Part shown: positions 32,956 through 48,625 of the stretch, in pieces
Layout: each line of letters opens with the position of its first letter
Position numbering within the stretch: position 1 is the stretch's first letter
From: Patescibacteria group bacterium
GTDB lineage: Bacteria; Patescibacteriota; Minisyncoccia; Phycocordibacterales; WO2-35-19
Assembly (NCBI GenBank): GCA_038064735.1
Contig: JBBTSI010000004.1
Location: 1 to 49,920 of the forward strand
DNA length: 49,920 nt
Reading direction: 5' to 3'
Made by a program: the position numbers and the translations under genes
The notes under the pieces: generated by a model
The model's database searches: none
What the model saw: the letters and a program-made list of their open reading frames with translations, nothing else
What the model was told of the DNA's origin: nothing

Positions 32956-34398
32956 GTGTCTAAAACATTTTACATAACAACCACTTTGCCTTACGTAAAT
33001 GCTGATTTGCATCTCGGTCACGCTCTTGAATTTATCAGAGCGGATGCAATCGCCAGATATAAAAAACTAAGCGGTTTCGAAGTATTTTTCAATAGTGGGA
33101 CAGATGAACATGGTATGAAGATTTATGAGAGAGCACAGGAGAGTGGTAAAAGTCCACAAGTATTTGTTGATGAAGCTTTCAAAAGATTTAAAGAACAAAC
33201 CAAATCATTTGGCATGTCTCTAGATACACATTATATCCGTACAACCGATGAAGGTCATATGAAATCAGCCCAAAATTTTTGGCAAAAAGTTTCTGATAAC
33301 GGATTTATTTATAAAAAGAATTACGAGGCGAAATATTGTGTAGGGTGTGAAGAGGAAAAAACCGAATCCCAGCTTGTAGATGGTAAATGCCCGATACATA
33401 CCGATAGGGAATTGGAAACGGTAAATGAAGAAAATTATTTCTTTGCTTTTTCGAAATTCCAAAAACCACTTTTGGAATTTTATGAAAAGCATCCTGATTT
33501 TGTTGTCCCCCAATTTCGATACAATGAAGTTCTTGCTTTTGTTAAAAATGGTCTTCAAGATTTCAGTATTTCCAGATTGAAATCAAAAATGTCTTGGGGT
33601 ATAGCGGTACCTGGAGATGAAAAACATGTGATGTATGTTTGGTTTGATGCTTTGACCAACTATATTTCCACTTTAGGTTGGGGTACCGATAATGAAGAAA
33701 ATTTTAAAAAGTTTTGGTTAGAAGGTAATCCAACTCAGTATTGTGGCAAAGACAATACTCGTTTTCAAGCCATAATGTGGCAAGCGATGCTTATGGCGGC
33801 AGAAGTTCCAAATAGCCACCAGATAGTGGTGAATGGTTTTATAACTGCTGAAGGTGGTGTGAAGATGTCAAAATCTTTGGGTAATGTAGTAGATCCGAAA
33901 GAAATTTCTGCGGAGTACGGTATAGACGCTCTGAGATATTTTTTATTGAGAGAGGTTTCTAGTTTTGAAGATAGCCCTTTTTCGAGTGATCGTTTTAAAG
34001 AAGTTTATAATGCTGGTCTAGCCAATGGTTTAGGAAATTTGGTGAGCAGAATAATGAAAATGGCTCAGGATAATTTGGAAAAACCGGTAGAAATTCCGGA
34101 AAAAAGTATTCCGCAAGAATTTTTTGATTATTTGGATAAATTTGAAATAAACAAAGCTTGCGATTTTATTTGGAAAGAAATTTCTGAAATGGATAAATTT
34201 ATCCAAGAAAATCAGCCATTTAAAGTGGTTAAGACCGATAAAGAAAAAGGCCAGCAGATGATTTCTGATTTGGTTGTGAGACTATATTCTGTCGCCAAAG
34301 TGTTAGAACCAATTTTACCTGAGACTTCAGCAAAAATAAAAGAACTTGTTAAAACCAATAAAACTCCGGAAAAACCTCTTTTTGTAAGGAAAGATTAA
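32956..34398 (+). CDS. metG: methionine--tRNA ligase (no C-terminal tRNA-binding domain)
   Basis: YITTTLPYVN..HLGH, GTDEHG, YVWFDAL, KMSKSLGN. Confidence 0.96.
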   Translation: MSKTFYITTTLPYVNADLHLGHALEFIRADAIARYKKLSGFEVFFNSGTDEHGMKIYERAQESGKSPQVFVDEAFKRFKEQTKSFGMSLDTHYIRTTDEGHMKSAQNFWQKVSDNGFIYKKNYEAKYCVGCEEEKTESQLVDGKCPIHTDRELETVNEENYFFAFSKFQKPLLEFYEKHPDFVVPQFRYNEVLAFVKNGLQDFSISRLKSKMSWGIAVPGDEKHVMYVWFDALTNYISTLGWGTDNEENFKKFWLEGNPTQYCGKDNTRFQAIMWQAMLMAAEVPNSHQIVVNGFITAEGGVKMSKSLGNVVDPKEISAEYGIDALRYFLLREVSSFEDSPFSSDRFKEVYNAGLANGLGNLVSRIMKMAQDNLEKPVEIPEKSIPQEFFDYLDKFEINKACDFIWKEISEMDKFIQENQPFKVVKTDKEKGQQMISDLVVRLYSVAKVLEPILPETSAKIKELVKTNKTPEKPLFVRKD

Positions 34399-34403
34399 TG
34401 AAT

Positions 34404-34468
34404 CCCGTTAGAAATTCATTCATATTATAAATATACTCATGATAGATATTAGTAAAATTTCTAACGGG
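34404..34468. mobile_element. start-codon-associated TIR element, copy 1 (tatD)
   Basis: ATGAAT-CCCGTTAGAAAT...ATTTCTAACGGG-ATGAAA. Confidence 0.85.
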
Positions 34469-35311
34469 ATGAAATACATCGATATACATAGTCATTTGGA
34501 CAGAGAGGATTATGGCCCTGATTTTGAGGCAGTTTTGGCACGTATGAAAGAGCAAGAAGTTGGAGCCATAGCTATAGGTGCGGATTTCCAAAGCTCAAAA
34601 AAAGCGGTTGAAATTGCTGAAGCCAATGAAAATGTTTGGGCTTGTATTGGGGTGCACCCCGAAGGAATTTCTCCGAAATCCTACGGGGCAGGTCCAGAAA
34701 CGGCTGAGAATAATAACATTTTAGAATTTGAAAAATTGGTTTCCAATCCCAAAGTAGTCGCCATAGGTGAATGTGGATTGGATTACTTCTTTGGGCGCCG
34801 AAGCTTTAGCGAAGGAGGCTTATCAAATGAAGAACTAAAAAAAATCCAAAAAGAATTATTTAAGAAACATATTGAGTTTGCTATTAAACACGACAAGCCA
34901 CTTATGTTACATATAAGAGATGCCTATGATGATGCTTTAGAAATTTTAAATAATTACAAAAAAGAAGCAGGAGAGACATTGCGGGGCAATGTACACTTTT
35001 TTGCTGGTAATATTGATGTTGCTAAAAAGTTTTTGGATCTAGGTTTTACAATGTCTTTCACTGGAGTCATCACTTTCACTCATGATTATGACGAGGTTAT
35101 AAAATATATTCCGCAAAATTCCATAATGTCCGAGACGGACGCGCCTTTTGTTGCTCCGATACCTTTCCGTGGCAAACGCAACGAACCTGTCTATGTGATT
35201 GAGGTCATCAAAAAGTTGGCGGAAATCCGAGGAGAGGATTTTGAAACTTTAAACTCTGCAATTTTAGCTAATGCTAAGCGAGTTTTTGCTTTTTTGGGAC
35301 AAAAATGTTAG
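34469..35311 (+). CDS. tatD: TatD family hydrolase
   Basis: IDIHSH, GVHP, IGECGLD, HIRDA, SETDAP, RNEP. Confidence 0.95.
   Translation: MKYIDIHSHLDREDYGPDFEAVLARMKEQEVGAIAIGADFQSSKKAVEIAEANENVWACIGVHPEGISPKSYGAGPETAENNNILEFEKLVSNPKVVAIGECGLDYFFGRRSFSEGGLSNEELKKIQKELFKKHIEFAIKHDKPLMLHIRDAYDDALEILNNYKKEAGETLRGNVHFFAGNIDVAKKFLDLGFTMSFTGVITFTHDYDEVIKYIPQNSIMSETDAPFVAPIPFRGKRNEPVYVIEVIKKLAEIRGEDFETLNSAILANAKRVFAFLGQKC
34796..34818 (+). repeat. family B palindrome in frame in tatD (RRSFSEGG)
   Basis: CGCCGAAGCTTTAGCGAAGGAGG. Confidence 0.75.
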
Positions 35312-35395
35312 AGTGTGCAAGTTCAAATCAGAGGCGCTAATTACTATAACTGCCTCTATCTGCCATAGGGTGGACCCATTTGAGCGATAATAATT

Positions 35396-35890
35396 ATGAA
35401 AGAAAAAGACGAAATGTTAGATGATGTTCAGGTTTATGAAGTAGGTTTTCATATTCTGCCTACCGTTCCTGAAGAAAAGTTGCCGGAATTGGTTTTAAAA
35501 ATAAAAGATTCCATAACTCAAAATGGGGGAGAAATCATCAGTGATGATTTTCCCAAAATGAGAGTTCTTGCTTACGAAATAAAAAAGCGCGTAGAAACCA
35601 AATATTCAACCTTCAATAAGGCATATTTTGGCTGGGTGAAATTTGAAATTTTGCCAGTTTTTGTCGCTAAATTAAAAACAGAAATGGAAACCAACCCGGA
35701 TGTTTTGAGATTTATAATAATCAAAACTGTTAGAGAAAATACTATGCATTCTCCAAAAGCTCCAATGGTTATGAAAACCGGAGCTACCGAAGAAGTGAAA
35801 ATACCTGAATTTGTACCAACAGAAAAAGTTGAAATTTCTGAAGCTGATATAGACAAAAGTATCGATGAACTTTTGATCAATGAAAATTAA
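35396..35890 (+). CDS. rpsF: 30S ribosomal protein S6 (acidic C-terminal extension)
   Basis: YE..F.I.P, LAYEIKK, VLRFII; rpsF-ssb-rpsR synteny. Confidence 0.9.
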   Translation: MKEKDEMLDDVQVYEVGFHILPTVPEEKLPELVLKIKDSITQNGGEIISDDFPKMRVLAYEIKKRVETKYSTFNKAYFGWVKFEILPVFVAKLKTEMETNPDVLRFIIIKTVRENTMHSPKAPMVMKTGATEEVKIPEFVPTEKVEISEADIDKSIDELLINEN

Positions 35891-35924
35891 TTAAAAATTG
35901 TTTGAAAATTTAAAATTAACTAAC

Positions 35925-36377
35925 ATGTACATAAACAAAGCGATTCTTTACGGTAACTTGACCAGAGAACCTGAACTCAAATCTTTACCGTCAGGTTCTC
36001 AAGTGTGTGAATTTGGGATAGCTACTAACCGTGTTTGGAAAGATAAAAATGGCGCTAAACAAGAATCAGCCGATTTCCACAATATCGTGGTTTTTGGTAA
36101 GCAAGCTGAACTTATCAAGCAATATTTGCACAAAGGCAGTGGAGTATTTTTGGAGGGCCGTATTCAAACCAGAAGTTGGGATGCTCAAGATGGAACCAAA
36201 AAATACAGAACTGAAATTGTAGTTGATAAATTCCAATTTGGTCCTAAGGGAGGTAGTTCAACTGGTGGTTCTTATGAAAATAATCAGTCTTCATCAAAAA
36301 CTGATAGCAAAAAGGAAGAAGCTCCTGTTATAGAATATCCGGAAGAAGAAATTAGTTCTGAAGATATTCCTTTCTAA
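35925..36377 (+). CDS. ssb: single-stranded DNA-binding protein
   Basis: NKAILYGNLTREPE, EGRIQTRSW, C-terminal DIPF. Confidence 0.97.
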   Translation: MYINKAILYGNLTREPELKSLPSGSQVCEFGIATNRVWKDKNGAKQESADFHNIVVFGKQAELIKQYLHKGSGVFLEGRIQTRSWDAQDGTKKYRTEIVVDKFQFGPKGGSSTGGSYENNQSSSKTDSKKEEAPVIEYPEEEISSEDIPF

Positions 36378-36396
36378 TTAAATTAATTAAAATATT

Positions 36397-36606
36397 ATGA
36401 CAAACAAACAAACTTGTTACTTTAAGCAAAATGGTATCAAATATATTGATTACAAAGATACCGAACTTCTAAAGAAGTTTATCAATCCTCACGCTCGTAT
36501 TCTCGGTAAAAAGAGAACCGGTATCTCTACCGAATACCAAAAGAAACTCGCTATGGCTGTGAAGCGCGCCCGCTTTATGGCTTTGATGCCCTATCTTTCT
36601 AGATAA
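36397..36606 (+). CDS. rpsR: 30S ribosomal protein S18
   Basis: IDYKD..LL.KF, AVKRARFMALMPY. Confidence 0.96.
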   Translation: MTNKQTCYFKQNGIKYIDYKDTELLKKFINPHARILGKKRTGISTEYQKKLAMAVKRARFMALMPYLSR

Positions 36607-36609
36607 AAT

Positions 36610-36638
36610 AAAAAGCCCCGCATTTTGCGGGGCTTTTT
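36610..36638. terminator. bidirectional terminator between rpsR and efp
   Basis: AAAAAGCCCCGC-atttt-GCGGGGCTTTTT. Confidence 0.8.
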
Positions 36639-36644
36639 ATTTTA

Positions 36645-37205
36645 TTAAACTCTCGAAACGTATTCGCCGTTTTGGGTGTTGACGACGATGGTGTCGCCTT
36701 CATTTATAAAAAGGGGAGCGTTGACCGAAGCGCCCGTTTCTACTTTGACGACTTTGTTACCACCTTGAGCGGTGTTGCCTTTCATGTTTGGGGGAGCTTC
36801 GACGACTTTGAGTTCTACTTTGATAGGTGTTTGTATACCTATAATCTTTTCATCAAAAATCATAGCTTTAGCAATGGCATCTTTTTTTAAGAATTTAACA
36901 CCGTAGCCGATTTGCTCTTCTTTTAAAGTAAATCTTTTGGCAGGGTTACCTTCTTCATGGAACCAGTATTCACCTTTTTGAACGTAAATAAATTTTATGT
37001 CTTTATATTCCAATTCGGCTTCTTCTACTTTTTCGGATACATGGAAAGAGTTTTCGGTCACTCGGCCACTAATGAGATTGCGGAGTTTGGTGGCATTTAC
37101 TGGTTTTCTTTGTTGTTTACGAAAGACGTGGGAAGCGATAACTTCCCAAGGTTCGTTTTGGTAAATGATAAATTTGCCGATTGTGATTTCATTGTATTCA
37201 AGCAT
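36645..37205 (-). CDS. efp: translation elongation factor P
   Basis: KLRNL.SG, KGNTAQGG.K, ETGA.V..PLFI.EGD, GEYVSR. Confidence 0.92.
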   Translation of the reverse strand: MLEYNEITIGKFIIYQNEPWEVIASHVFRKQQRKPVNATKLRNLISGRVTENSFHVSEKVEEAELEYKDIKFIYVQKGEYWFHEEGNPAKRFTLKEEQIGYGVKFLKKDAIAKAMIFDEKIIGIQTPIKVELKVVEAPPNMKGNTAQGGNKVVKVETGASVNAPLFINEGDTIVVNTQNGEYVSRV

Positions 37206-37310
37206 GTGACTGATTTTTAAACTGTAAAATTGGTAAATAAAAAATGCCGAAGCAACACAAGTGTAGCTTAAAATCGAGCTTGAATCAAGGCTGGTTAATA
37301 TTTAGGTTTT

Positions 37311-38414
37311 TTATTCTTCTGGAGCTTCGTCGGGTTCGTTAGTAGCTTTTTCGGAGACTGGGACGATGGAGCCGTTGTTTTCCAAAAGTTTTTTGCGGAT
37401 TTGTTTGAGGATTTCTTCGGTCAATTTTTTGTTTTCTTTGGCTTTGAGGAATTGGCGAGTGGCGTCATAACCACGGCCGATGGGGAGGTCTCCGTATTTA
37501 TAAGAAGCGCCAGATTTTGAAATGATGCCCATTTTTTCACCGAGGGCGATGATTTCGCCTTCTCGAGAAATTCCTTCGTTATACATGAGGTCAAACTCGG
37601 TTTGTTTGAACGGAGCGGCGACTTTATTTTTGACCACTTTGACTCTGACTCGGCCACCCATTATCTCATCACCTTTTTTAATTTGAGCGATTCTTCTTAT
37701 ATCCAACCTGACAGATGTGTAAAACTTCAAAGCTTTGCCTCCCGGAGTAGTTTCTGGGTTACCAAACATCACGCCGATTTGCATCCTGATTTGGTTGATG
37801 AAGATGACGACAGTTTTTGATTTGGCGACAATGGCGGTGAGTTTGCGGAGAGCTTGAGACATAAGTCTGGCCTGTTTGCCGACGTGAAAAGCTCCCATAT
37901 CACCCTCAATTTCATCTTTGGGAGTGAGGGCGGCTACCGAGTCGATAACAATGACATCGATTTTGCCGGAACGGACGAGAGAATCTACAATATCGAGAGC
38001 TTGCTCACCGTTGTCAGGCTGGGAAATAAGCAGTTGGTCTATCTTCACACCCAGCCTCTGGGAGTATTCCGGGTCCATGGCGTGCTCGGCATCAATGAAA
38101 GCGCAAACCCCTCCCATTTTTTGAGCTTCGGCTATGATATGCAGGGATAGGGTGGTTTTACCACTTGATTCTGGACCAAATATTTCTATTATTCTACCTC
38201 GAGGGACACCGCCGACACCGAGCGCTGCATCTAGTCCGATAGAGCCGGTAGGAATGGTGTTTACATCTACATGAGGTTTGTCGCCGAGCATCATGATTGA
38301 GTCGTCACCAAATTTGGTTTTTATTTCTCTGATAGCGTCTGCTACTCCTGATTCGGTATCTTTTTTAGCTAAGTCACTCATCGATGCTTTTTTTGTTTTT
38401 TCTTTCTTCTTCAT
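37311..38414 (-). CDS. recA: recombinase RecA
   Basis: [40 protein letters not shown]. Confidence 0.98.
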
Positions 38415-38423
38415 AATTTTAAT

Positions 38424-38804
38424 TTAACTTTCTAAAGTAGTAGTGCTTTGCTTGTAATAAACTCGGATTGTTCTCAAAGTCTCTTTTTTAAAACGATCAT
38501 GAGCTTTTATTTCAATTATATTAGACCCAGGGGAAAGCAGCAATTTTTCTTCAAACAGGCCTTCTTTGTTTACAAAGATGGGTTTTTCGTTAAGACTTAT
38601 ATACGTTATGTTTTTTGCTTTTCCATTTATAGTGATGACATTTTCTTGTGTCTCAATGTTTTTATTAGGACTGAATATTTCTATGGTTGGTCCAATCAAA
38701 AGATTCCTAGAATTGAATAACCCATAAGCGACTAACAAAAAAACAGATAAAGTGATTACGAAACGTTTTATATTGAATCCTCTTTCAAATTTATACTGGT
38801 TCAT
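38424..38804 (-). CDS. membrane-anchored Ig-like domain protein
   Basis: N-terminal TM; G.FE..L.L.PG.N.I.I.A.D. Confidence 0.7.
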   Translation of the reverse strand: MNQYKFERGFNIKRFVITLSVFLLVAYGLFNSRNLLIGPTIEIFSPNKNIETQENVITINGKAKNITYISLNEKPIFVNKEGLFEEKLLLSPGSNIIEIKAHDRFKKETLRTIRVYYKQSTTTLES

Positions 38805-38880
38805 CCCGTTAGAAATCTATTTTTTTAAATTTGGTTATTAAGTTTAAGTATAGTGAGTATATCATGGTATTTCTAACGGG
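38805..38880. mobile_element. start-codon-associated TIR element, copy 2 (also supplies the ftsK stop)
   Basis: minus strand ATGAAT-CCCGTTAGAAAT...ATTTCTAACGGG-ATGAAC. Confidence 0.85.
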
Positions 38881-41020
38881 ATTCATTTTCTGTTTCTTCA
38901 TTATTATCCGCTACAAACCCGCCTTCCGGTTTTATAAGAACTTCTCTTGGTTTGGATCCATTACCGACTCCGACGATTCCATTTTCTTCCAAAATATCTA
39001 TGATTTTTGCAGCTCTGGCATAGCCAATACCCAGCTTTCTTTGCAAGAAAGAAGTGGAGGCTTTGCCGGCGTTTATCACGATATCTTTGGCTTCATCATA
39101 CAAATCATCTTCATCACTACCGCCACCACCAGTCAGTGATTCAAAGAGCACATTTTTGCTGTTATCAGCAGCCATATCTATCTCTGTTGGTATATCGTCT
39201 TCGCTATTCTTTACCAAGTATTCTACTACTTTTTTGACTTCTGTTTCTGAAATAAAAGGGGATTGAAGTCTGACTGGTTTGGACATTTCTCCTGATATAT
39301 AAAGCATATCGCCGGCGCCAAGCAGTTTTTCGGCTCCTGCCGTGTCAAGGATGGTCCGAGAGTCAAATTGGGAAGCTACTTGAAGGGCTATACGGGCCGG
39401 TATATTGGCTTTGATGAGTCCGGTGATGACATTGACCGAAGGTCTTTGAGTGGAAAGTATGAGATGAATACCGACGGCTCGGCTCATTTGAGCTAGACGG
39501 ATAATAGCGGATTCAAGTTCTCTGGGGTATGCCTGCATAATGTCAGCTAGTTCATCAATAATAATTACAATGTAAGGCATTATCTCAGTGGTAGGTGAGG
39601 CAATATTTTTATGATATGACTCTATGTCTCGGACTTTGCTTTTTTCCAAAATATCATATCTACGTTCCATTTCTTTGGCTGCCCATTTGAGAGACATAAT
39701 GACTTTTTTGGCGTCGGTGATGACCGGAGTCAGGAGATGAGGAATTTTATTGTATTGAGTGAGTTCTACTCTCTTTGGGTCTATCATTATAAATTTCAAA
39801 TTTTCTGGTGAATTACGGAAAAGCAGGGAATTAATCAGGACGTGGATAGCGACTGATTTACCACTACCGGTGGCTCCGGCTATGAGCAAGTGAGGCATCT
39901 TGGCGATATTGGCAAAACTGGAAACGCCGGATATGCCTTTACCCAAAGCGACAGTCAAAGCTTTGTCCGAATCAGTATAACCGCTTTGAGAGAGGATGGA
40001 AGCCATACCTACGGTGGTCTTGACGGTGTTTGGTATTTCAATACCTACCAAAGATTTGCCGGGGATAGGAGCTTCTATGCGCACTGGGTGAGCCGCTAAA
40101 GCTAACTCCAAATTATTTTGCAGCCCGAGGATTTTAGAAAGTTTGACTCCTTCGGCTGGTTTGAGGGCATATCTGGTGACCGAAGGACCGATGGATATTT
40201 CATCCATTTCTACAATAATGCCAAAATTCTGCAAAGTTCTTTTTATGATATTTGAATTGGCTTTAATATCACCTACTTCAGGCCTGCCCCTATCTCTTTC
40301 AAGGAGTGATAGCGGGGGAGGAGTATAGGGTTTGAGTGATATGCTATTTCGGCGGATACCAAGTTCGTTGTCTTCTTCTGAAGAGATAGATTTTTTATTT
40401 GAAGATTGAACGGCGGGCACAGCTATTTTGGGTTGGGGAATTTCTTTCGCTTCACTGCTATCTAATATAGTCACTTCTTTTTCTTCAGTTTCTTCTTCCT
40501 CATCTTCTTCGTTCTCGTTTTTCTTCTTTCTAAATATATTAATAAATGAAGAAAAGTTGATAGCGGTATCAAATATTATAAGAATACTGATGACGACGAG
40601 CGCCCCTAAGATGACCGGAGTCCCATAGCCAAACAATTGAGTGAGTGGTTTTTGTATAAAGTTGCCCACCAGACCGCCTTTGTTTGCGAAGGCCAAATCT
40701 AACAAAGCAAGGGAAGAGAGCAAAAAGATGCCGGACCCGATAGCCCTCACGGCTCCAAAAGAGTGTCTTATGGATTTGGCAAAAGATACAGAAAGCAGAA
40801 GTGAAAGAATAGGGAGCAACAAATAGCCCCAACCAAAAAATTTCTCTAACAATTCATAAACAATATTGATACCTCCGGCCATACCAAATCGGGCGAGGAC
40901 CAATATAACAAACAGTACAAAAAATGAGACAGCAAATATCCATGAAGTAGTTTCATCTTTTAATCTTTTCATTTTGGGTTGGTCTGATTTTTTTTCTTTC
41001 TTGTTATTCTTTTTTGCCAT
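38873..41020 (-). CDS. ftsK: DNA translocase FtsK/SpoIIIE
   Basis: N-terminal TMs; PHLLIAGATGSGKS, IDELAD, TQRPS; gamma domain ASTSFLQRKL.IGY.RAA. Confidence 0.96.
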   Translation of the reverse strand: MAKKNNKKEKKSDQPKMKRLKDETTSWIFAVSFFVLFVILVLARFGMAGGINIVYELLEKFFGWGYLLLPILSLLLSVSFAKSIRHSFGAVRAIGSGIFLLSSLALLDLAFANKGGLVGNFIQKPLTQLFGYGTPVILGALVVISILIIFDTAINFSSFINIFRKKKNENEEDEEEETEEKEVTILDSSEAKEIPQPKIAVPAVQSSNKKSISSEEDNELGIRRNSISLKPYTPPPLSLLERDRGRPEVGDIKANSNIIKRTLQNFGIIVEMDEISIGPSVTRYALKPAEGVKLSKILGLQNNLELALAAHPVRIEAPIPGKSLVGIEIPNTVKTTVGMASILSQSGYTDSDKALTVALGKGISGVSSFANIAKMPHLLIAGATGSGKSVAIHVLINSLLFRNSPENLKFIMIDPKRVELTQYNKIPHLLTPVITDAKKVIMSLKWAAKEMERRYDILEKSKVRDIESYHKNIASPTTEIMPYIVIIIDELADIMQAYPRELESAIIRLAQMSRAVGIHLILSTQRPSVNVITGLIKANIPARIALQVASQFDSRTILDTAGAEKLLGAGDMLYISGEMSKPVRLQSPFISETEVKKVVEYLVKNSEDDIPTEIDMAADNSKNVLFESLTGGGGSDEDDLYDEAKDIVINAGKASTSFLQRKLGIGYARAAKIIDILEENGIVGVGNGSKPREVLIKPEGGFVADNNEETENESR

Positions 41021-41096
41021 CCCGTTAGAAATAGGAAATACTATTTCCGTAGTTAATTTATAATCCCATGAATCTCGTTAGTAAATTTCTAACGGG
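41021..41096. mobile_element. start-codon-associated TIR element, copy 3 (ftsK)
   Basis: minus strand ATGGT-CCCGTTAGAAAT...ATTTCTAACGGG-ATGGC. Confidence 0.85.
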
Positions 41097-41120
41097 ACCA
41101 TATATAAATAATATCATAAT

Positions 41121-41173
41121 GAAAAGCCAAGGACGAACCTTAAAAAGTCCCCAAGGTTCGTCCTTGGCTTTTC
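41121..41173. repeat. inverted REP-like doublet related to the RAYT-flanking palindromes
   Basis: GAAAAGCCAAGGACGAACCTT-N11-AAGGTTCGTCCTTGGCTTTTC. Confidence 0.7.
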
Positions 41174-41313
41174 TTGACTTCTTGTAAAGGACAGAATACT
41201 CTTATCTATAAAGACATATAAGTCGTTACTTGACGGCATAAGTCCGATAATGTGTAATGTAAAAGACATATAAAATATATAAGACAAAATAGATTTGTCC
41301 GATATTAAAAAAC

Positions 41314-42045: not shown

Positions 42046-42161
42046 AAGGGGAATTATGTATGGATCAGAAGTCATTTTTTCACCTCAAATGCGTCTTAAT
42101 TATAGAAGGGGTGTCGGTTTGACCAAAATCTCATAATATGCGATACTTTCTTATACCTTCC

Positions 42162-42207
42162 TTATCCACATGTTTCGTTTGAGAAGCTTGGATTAAGGCG
42201 GTAAAAT
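42162..42207 (+). promoter_or_regulatory. DnaA box plus sigma70 promoter for the surface protein gene
   Basis: TTATCCACA 42162-70; TTGAGA-17 nt-TAAAAT. Confidence 0.55.
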
Positions 42208-42470
42208 TCCTTTGTTACTAAATTTGCGATTTCTTGTCGATTACAGAGATCGTAGAGTTAGTTTAAATTGTTATTTATTTCAACAAATGAGGAGTAAAAT
42301 GAAAATTCATTTTCATTTTGTCCGAATGCAGTTGAAACAAGGATTATTAGTTTAATAATTATTAGTTTAAGTAAGCTTTGTGTTCACAAGACAAAAAGTT
42401 TGCTTAATAATCGTTTGGTACTTCATAAAAAATTTATAATAAAAATGAAGTTTCAAATGAATTCAAATTT

Positions 42471-44408
42471 ATGAATTTAAAATCAAAATTGTTCGCAGGC
42501 GCAGTAGGTGTTGCAATGGTTTTGGGTGTAGCATCTCCAATGATTGCTTCAGCTCAAACTGCTGCTGAACTTACAGCCCAAATCAATAGCTTGCTCGCTA
42601 TGATTGCACAACTCCAGTCACAAATTGCTGGTGGTGCATCTTCTGCTGCAGCTACAACCTTTACTAAAGACTTGACAGTCGGTTCAACAGGAGCAGAAGT
42701 TTCTGCTCTTCAGAGTTTCTTAGTATCAAAAGGTTTCCTTACTATGCCAGCAGGCGTAGCTATGGGTACTTTTGGTCCTTTGACTAAATCTGCTTTGGTT
42801 GCTTACCAAACTTCAGCTGGTATTACTCCAGCCGCTGGTTACTTTGGTCCTATCACTAGAGCTAAAGTCAACGCCGCAGCTCCTGTAGTAGTTACCCCTG
42901 GTACTACTCCATCTGTCCCTGGTGTTATCACTACTCCTGGTGTAGAAGGAACTCTTTCAGTCACTTCAAACAACTCAGGATTGGTTTCTACAGTTTACGA
43001 AGGTGATAGTGAAAAAGCTATCTATGGTTTCAATGTTGAAGCTAAGACTTCTGACATTGCTATCCAAAGAGTAAAAATTAATCTTGGAAGTGCTACTACT
43101 TTGTACAACAAAGGTTATGCAAAGATTTATTTGACCGATGGTTCAAATGTTCTTGCTTCATCTGATCTTAATTCCTCAACTGTTGTAAAAGATGGAGGTA
43201 ATTACTACATAACCTTGACCGGCTTTAACTTTGTTGTCCCTAAGGCTGCAAAGAAACAGTTGGTTATAAAGGCTGATGTTAGGTCTTCAATCGATTCTAC
43301 TGATAGAACAGCTTTGAACTTGCTTGCTGGTATACTTATTCCAGCAAACGGAGTAAGAGGAGTTGATGGTGCAGGTATTGACCAATATGGTGAGTCCGCA
43401 TTGTCTGCTAGAAATGTAACTTTCAGTGCTGATTTGACTGATAGTGCAGCTTTGAAAATCTCTCTTAACAATTCTTCACCTGTAGCACAAGATGTTGTTG
43501 CAGCAGATGGAGCTGAAAATGATGAACTTGATAAATTGACCCTCTTAACCTTTGATCTTAAATCTGAGAAAGATGCGATCACTTTGCAAGATCTCACAGT
43601 TAGATTGACTTATGCTGGTTCCGGAACAGCAACCGCTACTACTGTCTACTTGTATGAAGGTTCAACTGAATTAGATAATGCTTCAGTTGCTGCTACTAGC
43701 GCAACAGCCGCTAGCGCAAGTTTCACTGATTTGGAATACACTATTTCAAAAGATTCTACAAAAACTTTGACAGTTAAAGCTGATATTAGAACTGCTGACG
43801 GAACAATTAGAACTGTTTTGGCCGCAGTTACTGCAGGATCAGATGTTACTCCAGAAAACTCACTCGGTGATACTATAGTTGAGACTGGTTCTGCTACTGG
43901 TTATGCTATGGGTCTTAGAGACTCTGGTGTAGAACTCGCTTTGTCTTCAAAAGGTACTGCTGCAGTTTCTGGTACTAATGGTAATTCTACAGATATAAGT
44001 ACTTCTACTTTGACAGCAACATTTAATGTTAAAATCAAAGCAGTTGGTAACGATGTTATCTTGGGTACTGTTGGTTCAACCACTAACCCTCTGTTCTCTG
44101 CAAATAACTTTGTATTGTACAGAAATGGTGTCAAAGCTGTAGCTAGCGTTGCTACATCTACTTCATTCACTATTCCTTCAGCTTGTACAACCATTGTTGG
44201 TCAAGACAGCTGTACTTTGGCAGAAGGATCAGAAGTTACTATCCCAGTTACCTTCCAGATTCCTGGCAGAACAGCTGCACAAGCTGCTATTGCATCAGGT
44301 ATCTACTCTGTAGCACTTGAAGGAGCTACATGGGGTGTCACTCATCAAACATCAACCTTTATGGCTGGTGAACTTGCTTGGAGAACTAATGAAGTAAGCT
44401 TCCCTTAA
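42471..44408 (+). CDS. secreted peptidoglycan-binding, S-layer-like surface protein
   Basis: signal peptide; L.VGS.G.EV..LQ.FL...GYFGP.TR PG-binding domain; Thr/Ala/Ser-rich; strongly biased codons. Confidence 0.8.
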   Translation: MNLKSKLFAGAVGVAMVLGVASPMIASAQTAAELTAQINSLLAMIAQLQSQIAGGASSAAATTFTKDLTVGSTGAEVSALQSFLVSKGFLTMPAGVAMGTFGPLTKSALVAYQTSAGITPAAGYFGPITRAKVNAAAPVVVTPGTTPSVPGVITTPGVEGTLSVTSNNSGLVSTVYEGDSEKAIYGFNVEAKTSDIAIQRVKINLGSATTLYNKGYAKIYLTDGSNVLASSDLNSSTVVKDGGNYYITLTGFNFVVPKAAKKQLVIKADVRSSIDSTDRTALNLLAGILIPANGVRGVDGAGIDQYGESALSARNVTFSADLTDSAALKISLNNSSPVAQDVVAADGAENDELDKLTLLTFDLKSEKDAITLQDLTVRLTYAGSGTATATTVYLYEGSTELDNASVAATSATAASASFTDLEYTISKDSTKTLTVKADIRTADGTIRTVLAAVTAGSDVTPENSLGDTIVETGSATGYAMGLRDSGVELALSSKGTAAVSGTNGNSTDISTSTLTATFNVKIKAVGNDVILGTVGSTTNPLFSANNFVLYRNGVKAVASVATSTSFTIPSACTTIVGQDSCTLAEGSEVTIPVTFQIPGRTAAQAAIASGIYSVALEGATWGVTHQTSTFMAGELAWRTNEVSFP

Positions 44409-44466
44409 TCTAAGGACTTAAGAGCACTTGTGATTATCAAAAGCTTCGGCTAGCGATAATGCTCAC

Positions 44467-44492
44467 AAAAGCCCCGCGCAAGCGGGGCTTTT
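44467..44492 (+). terminator. intrinsic terminator
   Basis: AAAAGCCCCGC-gcaa-GCGGGGCTTTT. Confidence 0.8.
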
Positions 44493-44517
44493 GCTTTGCC
44501 TATTTTTTGTCTTTACC

Positions 44518-44548
44518 CATAATTCCAAGGACTGTCCTTGGAATTATG
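44518..44548. repeat. REP palindrome upstream of RAYT
   Basis: CATAATTCCAAGGAC-T-GTCCTTGGAATTATG perfect arms. Confidence 0.9.
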
Positions 44549-44561
44549 TTATTATTATTTT

Positions 44562-45218
44562 ATGTATAGAGAATTCAAATTTGCTCCAGAAGAGTATTAT
44601 CATATTTATAACAGAGGTACTGATAAAAGAGAAATTTTTACTAATGAAAAAGATTATGAAAGATTTATACAGTCTTTGTATCTATTTAATTCGGAAGAAC
44701 GAATTGTTTTAAAAATGATTTCAAAAAAGGATCGTTTTTCTTATGAAAGAGAAGAAACACTAGTTGATATTGGAGCATATTGTTTGATGTCCAATCATTT
44801 TCACTTACTCGTAAGAGCTAAAAATGATGAAGGAGTCAGTTCTTTTATGAAAAAATTGCAGACGTCTTATTCTATGTACTTTAATAAAAAATATGAAAGA
44901 AACGGGTCTTTGTTTCAGGGCCCTTTTAAAGCAGAACATGTTGGTAGAGACGAATATTTAAAATATCTTTTTGCTTATATACATTTGAATCCAATAAAAA
45001 TTATTGATCCAGAATGGAAAGAAAATGGTATAGCGGATATGTCAGAATCAAAAAATTATTTAAACTTGTATAAACACTCAAGTTATATAGATTATTTGGT
45101 AGGGGGTAGACAAGAGGCAAATATTTTAAATAAAGCGGTGTTTCCAGAATATTTCGAAGAACCTAAGGTTTTTGATGATTTTATAAATTTTTGGTTAACT
45201 TTCAAAAATAGGGTATAA
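44562..45218 (+). mobile_element. REP-associated tyrosine transposase (RAYT; IS200-like HUH Y1 family)
   Basis: YHIYNRG, AYCLMSNHFHLL (HUH), YFNKKY.R.GSLFQ, YIHLNP catalytic Tyr, SSY. Confidence 0.9.
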
Positions 45219-45241
45219 ATTCCAAGGACTGTCCTTGGAAT
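45219..45241. repeat. REP palindrome downstream of RAYT
   Basis: ATTCCAAGGACTGTCCTTGGAAT, identical to the core of 44518-44548. Confidence 0.9.
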
Positions 45242-45341
45242 AGGTGATAAAATACAGTATTGTTCCTAAAAAGCGGAATAATATGGATTAAAACGCAGTA
45301 TTTAAAGTTGCTGTATTTATAGCTTTTGATATCATTTATAT

Positions 45342-46631
45342 ATGCGGTATTTCGATAAAACTTTTTTTAAATTTACATTAGGATTTTTGGTTATTGTTGC
45401 GGTGAGTTTACTCATAATGTATGCCGCTTCCGCTTATGCTGTTGGAGTAGATAAAATTGTTTTTACCACTGAGCCTCAAACTATTAAACCAAATGAACTT
45501 TCAGGAGCGATAACCATCCAAACTCAAGATTTGGGGGGTAATTCTTTTCAAACTCCGGAAACTTTGGATATTCAGTATATTTCCACTTCCGCCACAGGAG
45601 AATTTTTGGGCAGTACCGGTAATCCAGCGACTACTTATATGAGCAAAAATACTGCCAACAAAACTTTTTATTACAAAGACGTCACTGAAGGCGTTTTTAC
45701 TATTACAATAAATGTAAGAGGCAGAGATACTGGGGTGGAATTAAATACTAGTCAACAAGTCACTGTTTCTTCAGGTACCCCTCAGAGCTCTCAAAATCCT
45801 CAAGGAGAAGTTTTAGGAACTTCAAGTGAGACTTCCTTATCTGGTAGTTCGTCTTCTTCGGGTGGGGGCAATACCACCAGAGTTTCTTCTTTAAATTCTC
45901 AACTGGATATTCAGGCGGGAAATGACAGAGCAACAACACCTGGCAGTCCGATTTGGTTTCAAGCAACTATCAAGAAAAACACAACAGGATTGAGTCCGGA
46001 TTTGAGCTGGTCTTTTGGTGATGGTCATGTCGGGACCGGCCCTTTGGTGAGCCACGAATATAAATATCCCGGGGATTATGCCGTGGTTTTGAGTAGTAGG
46101 GCGGGGGATATGTTTTCGGTCAGTAGACTCAAAGTCAAAGTAGCCAAGTCAAATATTTCAGTGGTGGATAAGGGTGAATATTTAGAAATTGTAAACAATG
46201 GCAGTTCGGAAATAAATCTTTTTAATTGGAAAATAGAAAATCAAGGCAAAGGATTCGTTTTTCAACCTAACACTATAATATTGCCTCATTCTTCTATAAA
46301 ACTAGATAAGAGTCTTTTAACAATGAAAGGTTTTGATAATAGTATGGGAACTTCTCTCAAAAATTGTTTGAAAGAAGAAGTTTTTGCGATTGCGCCGATT
46401 GAAAAGAAGGATTGGAGTGAAGTGGCTAAAAATGTTGATAATATAAAACAACAGGCTTTGGCGATACAAGCTAAGTTGCCAACCCCGAAAATAGAGGTCA
46501 AAAATACAGAAGTGGTTATAAATAACTTATTGGAAGCCACGACTAGTATTGATAATGTTATTTATGAAGTGCCCAAAGAAGAAGGTTTTTTCAAGCGGGC
46601 TTGGGGTTTTATTGCTGGTCTATTTGACTAA
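45342..46631 (+). CDS. secreted PKD-domain / lamin-tail-like protein
   Basis: signal/TM; WSFGDG....VSH.Y.YPG.Y.V.L PKD motif; EI.N.....INL..W. Confidence 0.8.
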   Translation: MRYFDKTFFKFTLGFLVIVAVSLLIMYAASAYAVGVDKIVFTTEPQTIKPNELSGAITIQTQDLGGNSFQTPETLDIQYISTSATGEFLGSTGNPATTYMSKNTANKTFYYKDVTEGVFTITINVRGRDTGVELNTSQQVTVSSGTPQSSQNPQGEVLGTSSETSLSGSSSSSGGGNTTRVSSLNSQLDIQAGNDRATTPGSPIWFQATIKKNTTGLSPDLSWSFGDGHVGTGPLVSHEYKYPGDYAVVLSSRAGDMFSVSRLKVKVAKSNISVVDKGEYLEIVNNGSSEINLFNWKIENQGKGFVFQPNTIILPHSSIKLDKSLLTMKGFDNSMGTSLKNCLKEEVFAIAPIEKKDWSEVAKNVDNIKQQALAIQAKLPTPKIEVKNTEVVINNLLEATTSIDNVIYEVPKEEGFFKRAWGFIAGLFD

Positions 46632-46658
46632 ATTTTAAATTCGGGTATGATGTAAATA

Positions 46659-46754
46659 ACGGCTTCGAAGACCATAGGCAACCATAAGTCCTGTGTTAGG
46701 AGTTTAATTACTCATTCCTTGCCCAGCCGTAGCTTTAGCGAAGGCGGGGGCCGT
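46659..46754 (+). promoter_or_regulatory. putative L10 leader (rplJ autoregulatory RNA) containing a family B repeat
   Basis: ACGGC...GCCGT closing stem; AAGACCATAGG...TAAGTCCTGTGTTAGG resembles the L10 leader; follows TTGACT-16-TATGAT. Confidence 0.55.
46717..46748 (+). repeat. family B palindrome, intergenic
   Basis: CCTTGCCCAGCCGTAGCTTTAGCGAAGGCGGG. Confidence 0.75.
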
Positions 46755-46773
46755 TTGGTCGAATTTTTTATTT

Positions 46774-46810
46774 CCTCCCCCTCTTAAAGTAAGAGGGGGC
46801 AAGGGGGTGA
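46774..46810. repeat. family C palindromic repeat
   Basis: CCTCCCCCTCTTAAAGTAAGAGGGGGCAAGGGGGTGA, close to 8487-8520. Confidence 0.75.
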
Positions 46811-46834
46811 TATTAAATTAAATTAATTATCAAA

Positions 46835-47323
46835 ATGGCAATTACAAAAGAAAAAAAGAAAGAAATTATCGCTGATTTGGAAAAGGTTTTGGCCAAATCC
46901 AAATCGGTAGTCTTTGTGCAATTCAACAAACTGCTCGTCAAAGATGTTTCTGTTATTAGAAGGTCTTTGAAAGAAGAGGGTGTTGGTTACGTGGTAGCCA
47001 AAAAGTCTCTTTTCAAAAGAGTTTTGGCAGCCAGCGGTATCAAAGGCACAGCTCCAAACTTAGAAGGGGAACTCGCTGTTACATACGGAGAAGATACACT
47101 TGCTCCATCTCGCAGTATTTATGAATTTCAAAAGAAGCTTGATGGTAAAGTCTCAATAATGGGAGGTATTTTTGATGGAGAATACAAATCTAAAGAAGAA
47201 ATGGTAAGCATTGCTTCCATCCCATCACTTGATGTCTTGCGTGGTATGTTCGTCAATATTTTGAACTCACCAATACAGAGATTTGCCGTAGCGCTTGGTC
47301 AGATATCAGAAAAGAAGTCTTAA
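46835..47323 (+). CDS. rplJ: 50S ribosomal protein L10
   Basis: MAITKEKK, V.KKSL, GGIFDG, LASIPS-like, upstream of rplL. Confidence 0.93.
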   Translation: MAITKEKKKEIIADLEKVLAKSKSVVFVQFNKLLVKDVSVIRRSLKEEGVGYVVAKKSLFKRVLAASGIKGTAPNLEGELAVTYGEDTLAPSRSIYEFQKKLDGKVSIMGGIFDGEYKSKEEMVSIASIPSLDVLRGMFVNILNSPIQRFAVALGQISEKKS

Positions 47324-47478
47324 TCGTTATTTGAAAATATTTTTCGTATATATTTTGAAATGCACGGATATTTTTCTGCTGAAAAATTCCGACGTAGCAG
47401 GCTCAGTCAAGCTCGCAAGGCATTTCAAAACACATACTCAAATATTTTCTTAAAAATTAAAAAATTAATTAAAATATT

Positions 47479-47886
47479 ATGTCAGAAGAAACAAAAATAG
47501 AAGCAGAAGTGGTAGAAGTTCCTGCTAAATTTGCTAAAATCGTGGAAGAAGTGGAAAAAATGTCCGTTTTGGATCTCAACGAACTTGTAAAAGTATTTGA
47601 GAAAAAGTTTGGTGTTTCAGCTACTGCCGTAGCTTCTGGTCCTGCAGTCGCAGCTGGTCCTGCTGCTGAAGAGAAATCAACCTTTACTGTTGAACTTTCA
47701 GACAGTGGTGCTACCAAAATCGCAGTTATCAAAGTAGTCAAAGAAGCTTTAGCTTTGGGTCTTAAAGATGCCAAAGATAAAGTTGATGCTGCTCCTACCG
47801 TGCTTGCTGAAAACATGAAGAAAGAAGATGCTGAAAATCTCAAGAAACAAATTGAAGAAGCAGGTGGCAAAGTAACATTAAAATAA
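47479..47886 (+). CDS. rplL: 50S ribosomal protein L7/L12
   Basis: ELVK.FE.KFGVSA, EEKSTF.V.L, KI.VIK.V, LGLKDAK. Confidence 0.97.
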
Positions 47887-47914
47887 CAAAAAGTCCCCTT
47901 GCGGGGACTTTTTG
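47887..47914 (+). terminator. intrinsic terminator
   Basis: CAAAAAGTCCCC-ttgc-GGGGACTTTTTG. Confidence 0.8.
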
Positions 47915-47940
47915 TTTTGGGTAGAATGCCTTTTATGGAT

Positions 47941-48007
47941 CCCGTTAGAAATCAGAACCTTCTAATTTACACAGGATTATATTATTAACTTTTTAATTTC
48001 TAACGGG
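47941..48007. mobile_element. start-codon-associated TIR element, copy 4
   Basis: ATGGAT-CCCGTTAGAAAT...ATTTCTAACGGG-ATGGAC. Confidence 0.85.
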
Positions 48008-48625
48008 ATGGACATACTGGAAAAACTTTTTGGAAGCGCCTCAAAAGTCAAAGTCATAAAACTATTTCTATTTAATCCGGAATCTGCTTTTGATTCTGCT
48101 CAGACAGCTGAAAGAAGCAAAATATCTGTCGAGATCGCCAGGAAGGAGATAAACAATCTTTTGGATATTGGTTTCCTTAAATCAAGATCTTATGTAAAAG
48201 AAGTAAAAAGGCAAAAAAATAGAAGCATTCAAATTTTTCGTAAAAGAGTAAATGGCTTCACATTAGACCCAAAATTTCCATATATAGAAGACATAAAAGC
48301 TTTCCTTTCAAACATAAATCCTTTCAAACACAAAGATATTGTTGATAAAATTTCCCGTGCCGGCAAAATTCAACTCCTTATTATTTCTGGTATTTTTATA
48401 AAAGATCCTGATAGTAGAGCAGATTTGCTCGTGGTAGGGGACAATTTGAAACAAGGTCAGCTCGATAACATCATCAAAACTATTGAATCCGAGATTGGCA
48501 GGGAAATCCGTTATGCCGTCTTTGAAACTTCCGAGTTTAAATACCGCCATTCCATGTTTGATAAACTCATCCGCGATATTTTGGATTATCCTCACGAAAA
48601 AATCATTAATAGGCTGGGGATGTAA
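48008..48625 (+). CDS. winged-HTH + nucleotidyltransferase-like protein
   Basis: LFGS..KVK...LFL.NP; ISGIF....S.ADLL.VGD; GREI.Y. Confidence 0.75.
   Translation: MDILEKLFGSASKVKVIKLFLFNPESAFDSAQTAERSKISVEIARKEINNLLDIGFLKSRSYVKEVKRQKNRSIQIFRKRVNGFTLDPKFPYIEDIKAFLSNINPFKHKDIVDKISRAGKIQLLIISGIFIKDPDSRADLLVVGDNLKQGQLDNIIKTIESEIGREIRYAVFETSEFKYRHSMFDKLIRDILDYPHEKIINRLGM

Follow-up and report, generated by a model that had tools for sequence, protein, structure and literature searches.

Four inserts at start codons in the window

The window, a stretch of 49,920 nucleotides of contig C4 from the patescibacterial genome G000 (618 kb in 12 contigs, 37% GC), contains four short inserts with inverted-repeat ends, each placed at the start codon of a gene. 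Family searches assigned the host genes as encoding TatD, a 126-amino-acid (aa) Glucodextran_B-like protein, FtsK, and a 205-aa protein that matched no family. Here, G-numbers denote genomes (G000 being that of the window), L-numbers loci and C-numbers contigs of G000, and c1-c4 are window copies 1-4. The 12-mer CCCGTTAGAAAT occurs at eight exact sites in the window (0 mismatches), which form four inverted pairs at 34404-34468, 38805-38880, 41021-41096 and 47941-48007; in dinucleotide-preserving shuffles the mean is 0.22 sites, and 0 of 100 shuffles reach eight. These positions, the exactness of all eight arms and the arm-to-arm lengths (65, 76, 76 and 67 bp) are as given in an earlier reading of this DNA (the original prediction); with the 13-bp ends described below, the copies measure 67-78 bp. 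The copies, with their terminal inverted repeats (TIRs) and target-site duplications (TSDs), are located as follows:

34398..34402, plus strand: original ATG of copy 1 (34398-34400), overlapping the metG stop TAA at 34396-34398
34403..34469, plus strand: copy 1 (tatD), 13-bp TIRs from T34403 to A34469 with a 41-bp AT-rich interior
34399-34402 (left) and 34470-34473 (right), plus strand: copy 1 TSD, TGAA
38804..38881, minus strand: copy 2 (126-aa Glucodextran_B-like gene), 13-bp TIR to TIR
38882..38886, minus strand: original ATG of copy 2 (38884-38886), with the upstream TSD TGAA at 38882-38885 and the downstream TSD at 38800-38803
41020..41097, minus strand: copy 3 (ftsK), 13-bp TIR to TIR, with the rebuilt ftsK ATG at 41018-41020
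41098..41101, minus strand: original ATG of copy 3 (41099-41101), behind a leaderless-type -10 box
41098-41100 and 41017-41019, minus strand: copy 3 TSD, TGG (3 bp)
47935..47939, plus strand: original ATG of copy 4 (47935-47937), 7 nt after a TAGAAT -10 box
47940..48008, plus strand: copy 4 (205-aa gene, no family), 13-bp TIR to TIR, with A48008 starting the rebuilt ATG
47936-47939 and 48009-48012, plus strand: copy 4 TSD, TGGA

The left TSD copy keeps the original ATG together with its native context, and the terminal A or G of the element plus the right TSD copy rebuild an ATG or GTG. At copy 1 the upstream open reading frame (ORF, 32956-34398), identified as MetG by Pfam, ends on the A of ATG 34398, giving the TAATG overlap with the metG stop that had been proposed, and the rebuilt tatD ATG begins with A34469. 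Retention of the original initiation context upstream, also proposed, is seen at copies 3 and 4 in the -10 boxes that precede the original ATG codons. The rebuilt ATG of copy 2 occupies 38802-38804 (minus strand), and on the same strand an open frame of 25 codons leads from the original ATG to a TAA within the downstream TIR, which leaves 7 nt to the rebuilt ATG. For ftsK, the reading frame now terminates at a TAG within the other TIR of copy 2 (38873-38875), giving an FtsK C terminus of ...ENESR, versus the ...ENEPV/I implied by the empty sites of congeners. Predicted RNA folds of copies 1-4 have energies of -21.5, -17.1, -23.2 and -19.1 kcal/mol, with z scores of -4.27, -3.90, -3.56 and -3.11, respectively.

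Ends, target duplication and mobility of the family

The anatomy of the ends was analyzed in 147 copies pooled from G000 and 120 public stretches. The ends are 13-bp TIRs, Y-CCCGTTAGARRT...AYYTCTAACGGG-R, with a 4-bp TSD outside them. The base outside each 12-mer is complementary to its counterpart in 140/147 copies (T..A in 67, C..G in 73), and a 4-bp direct repeat, perfect in 94/147 and matching at three or more of the four positions in 112/147, is found solely in the register just outside this thirteenth pair; six other registers tested gave 0-5/147 perfect repeats. Because the thirteenth pair is complementary and the repeat is confined to one register, the structure is a 13-bp TIR with a 4-bp TSD rather than a 5-bp duplication plus a T. 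The flanks of the window copies had been read as ATGAA.T/ATGAA (tatD, and the minus-strand gene at 38804), ATGG.T/ATGG and ATGGA.T/ATGGA; this reading stands, except that the extra T is the thirteenth base of the TIR, so that the TSDs in the window are TGAA, TGAA, TGG (3 bp, at ftsK) and TGGA. The TSD spectrum comprises TGAA (32), TAAA/TTTA (17), TTGA/TCAA (12), TGGA (9), TGAG (6) and rarer others, and TNNA-type duplications make up most of the 94 perfect ones. The family is characterized by 13-bp TIRs together with a target duplication of 4 bp, for which TGAA is preferred within the wider pattern T-N-N-A.

In the resulting layout, A/TGAA/[T-CCCG...CGGG-A]/TGAA, the last base of the right TIR and the duplicated TG form the new start codon. 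At three loci the start has been switched from ATG to GTG (L088, L098 and L171; ATGAA-C...G-TGAA) and at one from TTG to ATG (L154; TTGAA-T...A-TGAA), from which it follows that the terminal A or G belongs to the element. A minimal 30-bp form (L049), consisting of two TIRs and a 6-nt loop with the TSD TTTA, indicates that the ends suffice in cis. At the two variable arm positions both arms are identical in 143/152 copies, versus 66 expected, showing that the arms co-vary. The original prediction of selection on the stem only agrees with this co-variation, but does not extend to one subfamily, that of copy 2, which also retains an open reading frame (see below). In an Rfam 15 scan of window positions 34000-48500 (E <= 10), the copies gave just sub-threshold hairpin- or miRNA-like matches, and Rfam gave no match on the elements of eight loci with GC-rich or two-hairpin interiors.

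Orthologous sites that are empty and have just one start codon, the existence of which had been predicted, were found in congeners for all four window copies. For copy 1, G010 and G001 have short element-free junctions. For copy 2, eleven congeners have a single ...GAAAATGAAC.. junction, at which the ftsK stop overlaps the start of the next gene, and the site is occupied in G001 (arms 12/12 and interior 37/53 identical). For copy 3, a single ATGGC or ATGAC follows ..tgtgatattatttagat in G001, G004, G014, G015 and G009, and for copy 4 a single ATGGA follows ggtagaatgcg.. in G016 and G011, with a single ATGGA also in G013. Arm counts range from 0 to 79 per genome across 17 genomes of the genus; G000 has 26 paired copies of 60-104 bp and a few degenerate ones. 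In other species, copies of the same subfamilies show 75-88% identity to those of the window and lie at quite different genes, the surrounding genes being ~66-77% identical. Empty sites, copy numbers that vary between species and the presence of one subfamily at different genes together show that the elements insert and are mobile. Tandem copies (L227, L268 and L270, and C10:62009-62090 in G000), in which each new copy occupies the start or target that its predecessor rebuilt, an ATGAA at the three L loci, show that the regenerated site stays a target. Contigs from four DNA runs bridge copies 1-3 unchanged (window 34000-48300) and no listed joint removes an element, although such contigs are blind to rare variants.

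The exact TIR pair was found in 30/301 sampled genomes of the order and in at least 120 stretches of a species-representative genome collection. By record title, the matching stretches come from many Patescibacteria classes, Planctomycetota, Delta- and Gammaproteobacteria, Nitrospirota, Omnitrophota, KSB1, WOR-3 and Elusimicrobia. The GC content of 15 such loci, 13 of them from non-Patescibacteria records, is 0.32-0.57, versus 0.37 in G000. Phage carriage finds little support, with just three matching stretches among viral contigs.

The interiors of the four window copies were originally described as unrelated. They do differ from each other, but copies 2, 3 and 4 belong to subfamilies with copies elsewhere: copy 4 is identical to C3:105424 at 38/43 positions, copy 3 to five other copies at 42-46 of 52-54, and copy 2 to six other copies at 35-44 of 53, while copy 1 lacks a close relative (best 68%). 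Orientation relative to the gene, as judged by eye, is uniform within each of five subfamilies, whose copies lie at different genes, and an 8-mer resembling the right TIR is found near the left TIR in 14 strong cases, versus one in the reverse sense. Because symmetric ends cannot set the orientation, it would be set by the interior or by selection. All nine copies (9/9) of the copy 2-like subfamily have an open frame running from the host ATG (MNPVRNtMxYxLYLKL...KFLTG); it contains 0 stops, versus 2-6 and 1-3 in the two remaining frames. Eight copies close it with the overlapping TGA and one, window copy 2, with the TAA of the TIR.

In G000, for which gene calls are crude (632 genes, 89% coding), the paired copies are not at random positions, in line with the original prediction: 21/26 abut an ORF of at least 93 codons, and 20 of these 21 retain the duplicated start codon upstream. 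The proposed specificity for initiation codons is, however, not exclusive, since 5/26 copies have no adjoining ORF; at least three of these five lie directly upstream of -35-like hexamers (e.g. TTGACG-17-TATACT, TTGAAA-17-TATAGT, TTAACA-17-TAGAAT). Every paired copy with a TGAA TSD abuts an ORF start, in a genome with 153 TGAA sites at predicted starts, 674 in intergenic and 8195 in coding sequence. In G001, G008, G009 and G015 together, 19/20 copies are at start-codon positions. Using crude gene calls and criteria, Shine-Dalgarno (SD)-like motifs were found before 61/611 predicted genes of G000 and a -10-like hexamer 5-9 nt before the start in 256/611, which suggests that leaderless or SD-independent initiation may be widespread in this genome. 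Among targeted genes, 11/20 have a leaderless-type -10 box, versus 42% of the 611 genes, i.e. there is no enrichment.

One short-copy subfamily has a two-hairpin interior (CCG....CGG, CA, a second hairpin, and TT), the stems of which, by eye, differ between genomes in a compensating manner. Copies of this type (e.g. in G081, G084, G161, G198 and G174, and in G000 at C9:15831, C10:62009 and C3:50783) are located just upstream of -35-like hexamers and not on start codons.

A full-length form encoding a GIY-YIG nuclease

Arm pairs ~265 bp apart in three congeners (G015, G009 and G014; L185, L186, L187) enclose one interior-filling ORF, MNPVRDQNLMWYVYVIKS...YTGSTNDLRKRFNQHN...LIYYE...KRFLSLTG, followed by the stop. 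Elements of 266-281 bp with the same ends are intact in three congeners and broken by a TAG in a fourth, and they also occur across the order and in records labelled Planctomycetota. The ORF, the sole gene of the full-length form, encodes an 86-95-aa GIY-YIG (UPF0213-like) nuclease (PF01541, E 6.2e-17, 62.1 bits versus a cut-off of 22.6) that consists of the catalytic domain and a short basic tail only. The nearest solved chains are the UPF0213 protein BH0048 (1zg2; E 1.2e-8) and EF2693 (1ywl; E 0.078); the NCBIfam group I intron endonuclease model gives E 0.006, below its cut-off. Residues Y14, Y25, G27, R35, H39, N40 and E59 are invariant in 20 homologues, with catalytic roles among them that we take to be those of the corresponding I-TevI residues. 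The existence of protein-coding elements with the same ends supports the designation of the short copies as non-autonomous. The original prediction had further proposed a search for longer elements with the same TIRs that encode a transposase; a longer coding relative was found, but its product is a GIY-YIG nuclease, which is only predicted to be the mobilizing enzyme.

The start and stop codons of the nuclease gene are supplied by the target duplication. The frame starts at the duplicated ATG of the host and in most copies reads M-x-P-V-R-D, where x derives from the second codon of the host gene and PVRD from the left TIR. The C terminus, (S)-L-T-G, derives from the right TIR, and the right TSD provides the stop, a TGA that overlaps the rebuilt start (..GGA TGA A..). 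We collected 37 loci of close homologues from 36 genomes (30 top matches in the order, four from the genus, and three from two records labelled Planctomycetota). Both TIRs were recognized by pattern in 28/37 loci (266-281 bp), and among these 28 the TSD is perfect in 17, while an ATG or GTG follows in 23. The other 9/37 have variant or damaged arms, as judged by eye, seven with both arms and two with one; the variant arms CCCGTACGAAAT/ATTTCGTACGGG and CACGTTAGAGAT/ATCTCTAACGTG have compensating changes in both arms. Of the Planctomycetota-labelled copies, L222 has the exact TIR with a TSD of TAAA, and L223 lies at an ATGAA start.

A wider search returned 3942 database homologues at E <= 1e-10, of which the N and C termini were read in the best 120. 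Among these, 74 begin M-x-PVRD (x = N in 63, S in 7, T in 2, Y in 1 and G in 1), as expected from duplications of TGAA, TGAG, TGAC, TGTA and TGGG, respectively; a further eight have PVRD behind a start located further upstream, 38 start at an internal methionine, and 110 end in ...LTG. Since 62% share their frame with the host ATG, versus at most one third if the frame were free, N-terminal fusion to this ATG is a built-in feature. A dimer model of the nuclease scored 0.73, versus 0.21 for the best of three controls, with runs agreeing on at least 81% of contacts and a partner pLDDT (predicted local confidence) of at least 82; the mark applied to this score was reached by 20/30 proteins solved as same-chain pairs and by 1/23 solved as single chains. 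The model supports a dimeric nuclease, which would fit two identical ends.

The short copies and the coding form have ends, TSD and site behavior in common, and some short interiors can be aligned with the full-length element. The copy 3 interior, CTACGGAAAT..ATTTCCT, matches two inverted segments of it: copy 3 and its relatives keep CTACGGAAA...TTTCCT plus the TIR, and both segments are inverted repeats in the coding element. Against the 279-bp element, copy 3 matches at 13/15 positions (parent 82-96) and 17/18 positions (parent 262-279), with a score of 63.9 versus a shuffle maximum of 60.3. The alignment of a 102-nt type to the 279-bp element likewise exceeds shuffles. The first nine interior bases of copy 4, CAGAACCTT, match the sub-terminal CAAAACCTT of the full-length form (parent 2-21, 18/20 with the TIR), marginally above shuffles. 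With respect to class, the short elements have TIRs and a fixed-length TSD, and are multicopy and non-coding with insertion polymorphism, as do MITEs (miniature inverted-repeat transposable elements). The class that suits the window copies best is that of MITEs, if unusual ones; they are non-coding derivatives of the full-length element.

Other small GIY-YIG genes (L198, L199, L201 and L208; congeners G011, G008 and G016) are 39-43% identical to the TIR-bounded one, have no TIRs, and adjoin tRNA-like sequence. At L208 the upstream stretch is partly repeated downstream and at L198 a shorter stretch recurs, as if these genes had been inserted at tRNA genes.

Mobilization, start-codon bias and alternative explanations

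We propose, with a probability of roughly 0.7, that the four inserts are non-autonomous, MITE-like members of a very small DNA element family, that the GIY-YIG nuclease is its mobilizer, and that the start-codon bias results from target preference combined with selection. The nuclease, probably as a dimer on two identical ends, would move both the full-length and the short copies. Ribosomes starting at the original ATG would read into the element, open the 13-bp stem, and restart at the rebuilt start codon by termination-reinitiation; start-codon insertions would be tolerated because of this hand-over. The bias may then reflect a preference for TGAA-type targets and two selection filters. At the host level, in an 89%-coding genome, the survivors would be insertions that keep the gene expressed; at the element level, the nuclease would be expressed just from copies that are fused to a host start and closed by the TGA.

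Several observations weigh against this proposal. No TIR-flanked nuclease gene was found in G000 (92% complete), and co-occurrence in the order is at chance level: a homologue at E <= 1e-30 is present in 4/30 genomes with short copies versus 34/301 overall (3.4 expected), and at E <= 1e-20 in 10/30 versus 69/301 (6.9 expected), the set of 30 being defined by the exact TIR pattern, to which elements with a different TIR variant or a longer interior are invisible. Within the genus the split is weak, with a TIR-flanked copy in 4/10 genomes having at least six arms (one of the four TAG-broken) and in 0/7 having at most two. We know of no GIY-YIG enzyme that catalyzes transposition. Copies 1 and 2, and most short copies, do not rise above shuffles in alignment to the full-length element. 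Read from the original ATG, the frame of most short copies reaches a stop 18-83 nt ahead of the rebuilt start, and simple stop-start coupling therefore fails to account for these copies. Among 114 short copies sampled across phyla, all with enough flank, a duplicated ATG or GTG precedes an ORF of at least 60 codons in just 28; in another 14 such an ORF follows but no upstream start is present, 22 adjoin TTGAC/TTTAC-like hexamers and 50 are elsewhere. The start-codon habit is therefore strongest in the small genomes of the window's genus. The breadth of the distribution is also qualified, in that phylum labels are those of the depositors and bins of metagenome-assembled genomes can be mixed. 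An internal outward promoter finds no support either, -10-like hexamers within 12 nt of the distal TIR being found in 13/41 cases on the gene strand versus 8/41 on the other strand.

TIRs with a fixed-length TSD, such as are present here, are the hallmark of DDE transposition, and the ends could belong to a conventional DDE family (e.g. IS1380/piggyBac-like), with the short copies as its MITEs and the GIY-YIG gene as cargo or a hitch-hiker. piggyBac has a TTAA target and CCC ends, and IS1380 has a 4-5-bp TSD and CC ends; the CCC ends and 4-bp T..A-type target of the present family, with its prevalence of TNNA among perfect TSDs, resemble both, and the 30-bp interior-less form shows that the ends alone are needed in cis. 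We regard this explanation as improbable, since the IS1380 family was unmatched in 17/17 genomes of the genus, with two weak sub-threshold matches in 41 relatives, and neither DDE_Tnp_1 (PF01609) nor DDE_3 nor rve was found in five element-rich genomes (G000, G001, G016, G307 and G181). Moreover, no arm pair at insertion-sequence (IS) distance enclosed a transposase in ~150 loci scanned, and all 37 of the closest nuclease homologues examined carry the ends or variants of them, the ORF spanning TIR to TIR. Orphan arms, seen at ~30 loci, were explained by degenerate partners, by tandem copies or by chance matches within genes, and none enclosed a transposase. A zinc ribbon search found no TnpB in the same five genomes; a tyrosine recombinase is present in G000, G307 and G181 and was not found in G001 and G016. 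The only classical transposase-like genes found in the five, 4, 3, 4, 10 and 4 in the order given above, are Y1_Tnp/RAYT-like, one of them lying in the window (44538-45218; NF047646 E 2e-12, below cut-off). This raises the possibility of REPIN-like hairpins moved via single-stranded DNA by RAYT/IS200-like Y1 (HUH) proteins, with which the capacity of the elements to fold into long hairpins and their fixed orientation relative to genes would agree. HUH transposition (IS200/IS605), however, makes no target duplication, whereas 94/147 copies have a 4-bp TSD. Three of the four RAYT-like genes in G000 are flanked by different palindromes of their own, e.g. AATTCCAAGGACTGTCCTTGGAAT, and none by the element TIRs, and such genes are equally present where arms are scarce (seven in G011, four in G004 and one in G003, each genome with one arm). 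A RAYT link, as raised in the original prediction, thus finds no support, and this mode of movement is very unlikely.

A further possibility is that insertion is mechanistically aimed at translation or transcription start regions, e.g. at DNA melted at leaderless promoters. In G000, TGAA sites are commoner in intergenic sequence (674) than at starts (153), yet all TGAA-TSD copies are at starts. The second niche, the first four bases of -35-like hexamers, is also a polymerase-bound edge, and G000 is poor in SD-like motifs and rich in -10 boxes at leaderless distance. Yet leaderless-type -10 boxes are not enriched among targeted genes (11/20 versus 42%), copies 1 and 2 lie on starts that overlap the upstream gene rather than on promoters, and short copies in other phyla are mostly elsewhere (50/114). 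Full-length copies, by contrast, are more often on starts (74/120 by N termini), as selection for expression predicts. We consider such direct aiming unlikely, if somewhat less so than a DDE origin. Hardly tenable is the view that the hairpins are a non-mobile, conserved cis-regulatory operator or leader of the host genes. The arms are perfect and co-vary, and the orthologous same-site copies in G000 and G001 keep 12/12 arms with 37/53 interior positions, but the empty sites refute the view: copy 2 is missing from eleven congeners, which have an exact, undisturbed junction, and the other three sites are also element-free somewhere. In addition, the flanking 4 bp vary with the host gene and Rfam 15 holds no matching family. 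Three further candidates were rejected. In the hairpin of integron attC sites, the 5' arm carries R'' (RYYYAAC) and the 3' arm R' (GTTRRRY), whereas the GTTAGAA and TTCTAAC of the arms are, read by eye, in the wrong order on both strands; a hammerhead-like ribozyme has no Rfam support; and translational bypass is unnecessary since the start is rebuilt.

The window contains other repeats besides the start-codon elements. The RAYT/IS200-like Y1 gene (PF01797, E 2.4e-12) is bracketed by identical 24-nt palindromes, AATTCCAAGGACTGTCCTTGGAAT, at 44521-44544 and 45218-45241, and the unit 44521-45241 looks like a small IS200-type unit that is unrelated to the start-codon elements. Two of the three other Y1 paralogues in G000 have their own flanking palindromes (..CAAAGATGCCC.TTG..), and the third, on C1, has none. 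A second repeated non-coding stretch with an inner hairpin, GTTTCAAC...GTTGAAAC, is located at 42272-42355, with a 93% copy at C3:42982-43049 and an 88% copy in the congener G008. Upstream of the ftsK promoter, a terminator-like, perfect 21-bp inverted repeat (GAAAAGCCAAGGACGAACCTT / AAGGTTCGTCCTTGGCTTTTC) at 41121-41173 has CCAAGGAC in common with the palindromes around the RAYT-like gene.

Comparison with known systems places the family near, but not within, several of them. Like MITEs, the elements are short, non-coding and multicopy, with TIRs, a fixed short TSD, presence/absence between relatives and a longer coding relative; unlike in MITEs, this relative is only ~280 bp and encodes a GIY-YIG nuclease rather than a DDE, HUH, serine or tyrosine transposase, the interiors vary by subfamily while the 13-bp ends are identical across phyla, and the copies occupy start codons in a single orientation. 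Free-standing GIY-YIG homing endonuclease genes, such as the seg genes of phage T4 and that of I-TevI, are likewise selfish small genes with a GIY-YIG nuclease as sole product. Homing, however, is repair copying into one cognate allele without TIRs or a TSD, in contrast to the TIRs, 4-bp TSD and many unrelated targets found here. UPF0213/YhbQ-like proteins (BH0048, EF2693) are the nearest solved sequences and have the same size and domain, but they are annotated as of unknown function and the likeness is one of protein sequence alone; we know of no report of their genes being bounded by inverted repeats or fused to host starts. REPIN-RAYT systems also have two conserved inverted arms with a freer spacer, form hairpins and persist over long periods; REPINs, though, flank their own RAYT and have no TSD, whereas here the RAYT-like genes carry other hairpins and occur regardless of the element. 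With piggyBac/IS1380 the family has in common the CCC ends and a 4-bp duplication with T first and A last, but no such transposase was found, an extra Y:R pair lies between TSD and CCC, and TGAA rather than TTAA is preferred. Rickettsia palindromic elements and the 'byp' elements of Magnusiomyces mitochondria are mobile hairpins inside coding regions, small palindromic inserts tolerated in or at genes by translation and with matching codons on both sides; those are read through or bypassed within an ORF, whereas the present inserts lie at the first codon and go with a duplicated start, and their parent codes for a nuclease. A full-text literature search, seen as listings and the beginnings of abstracts and covering neither subscription journals nor supplementary files, returned no description of these repeats or of a TIR-bounded GIY-YIG element.

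If autonomous, the coding relative would be a new class of transposable element. We see about an even chance that the full picture holds, i.e. that this is an unrecognized class of prokaryotic transposable element and the smallest autonomous one (~280 bp), in which a ~90-aa GIY-YIG dimer acts as transposase on 13-bp ends, start and stop of the gene's long form are taken from the host at A-TGA-A through the 4-bp duplication, ribosomes are passed to the rebuilt start, and the family and its MITEs are spread across Patescibacteria, Planctomycetota and other phyla. If the nuclease does mobilize the elements, GIY-YIG would be a further transposase chemistry beside those of the DDE, HUH, serine, tyrosine and Cas1 enzymes, used by an element that is several times smaller than IS200, and thousands of 'GIY-YIG nuclease family protein' or UPF0213-like annotations would gain a function.

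Even without a role for the nuclease in mobilization, a TSD that supplies the start and stop of a parasite gene while rebuilding the start of the host gene represents a new lifestyle in an 89%-coding genome. Gene callers misplace starts at element loci, as exemplified by the 95-aa versus 86-aa calls for the nuclease, and the elements provide ready-made markers of strain history. Essential genes, ftsK and tatD among them, tolerate a 13-bp stem against their start codons in a genome with very little Shine-Dalgarno usage, and leaderless initiation and termination-reinitiation in Patescibacteria thereby become directly testable.

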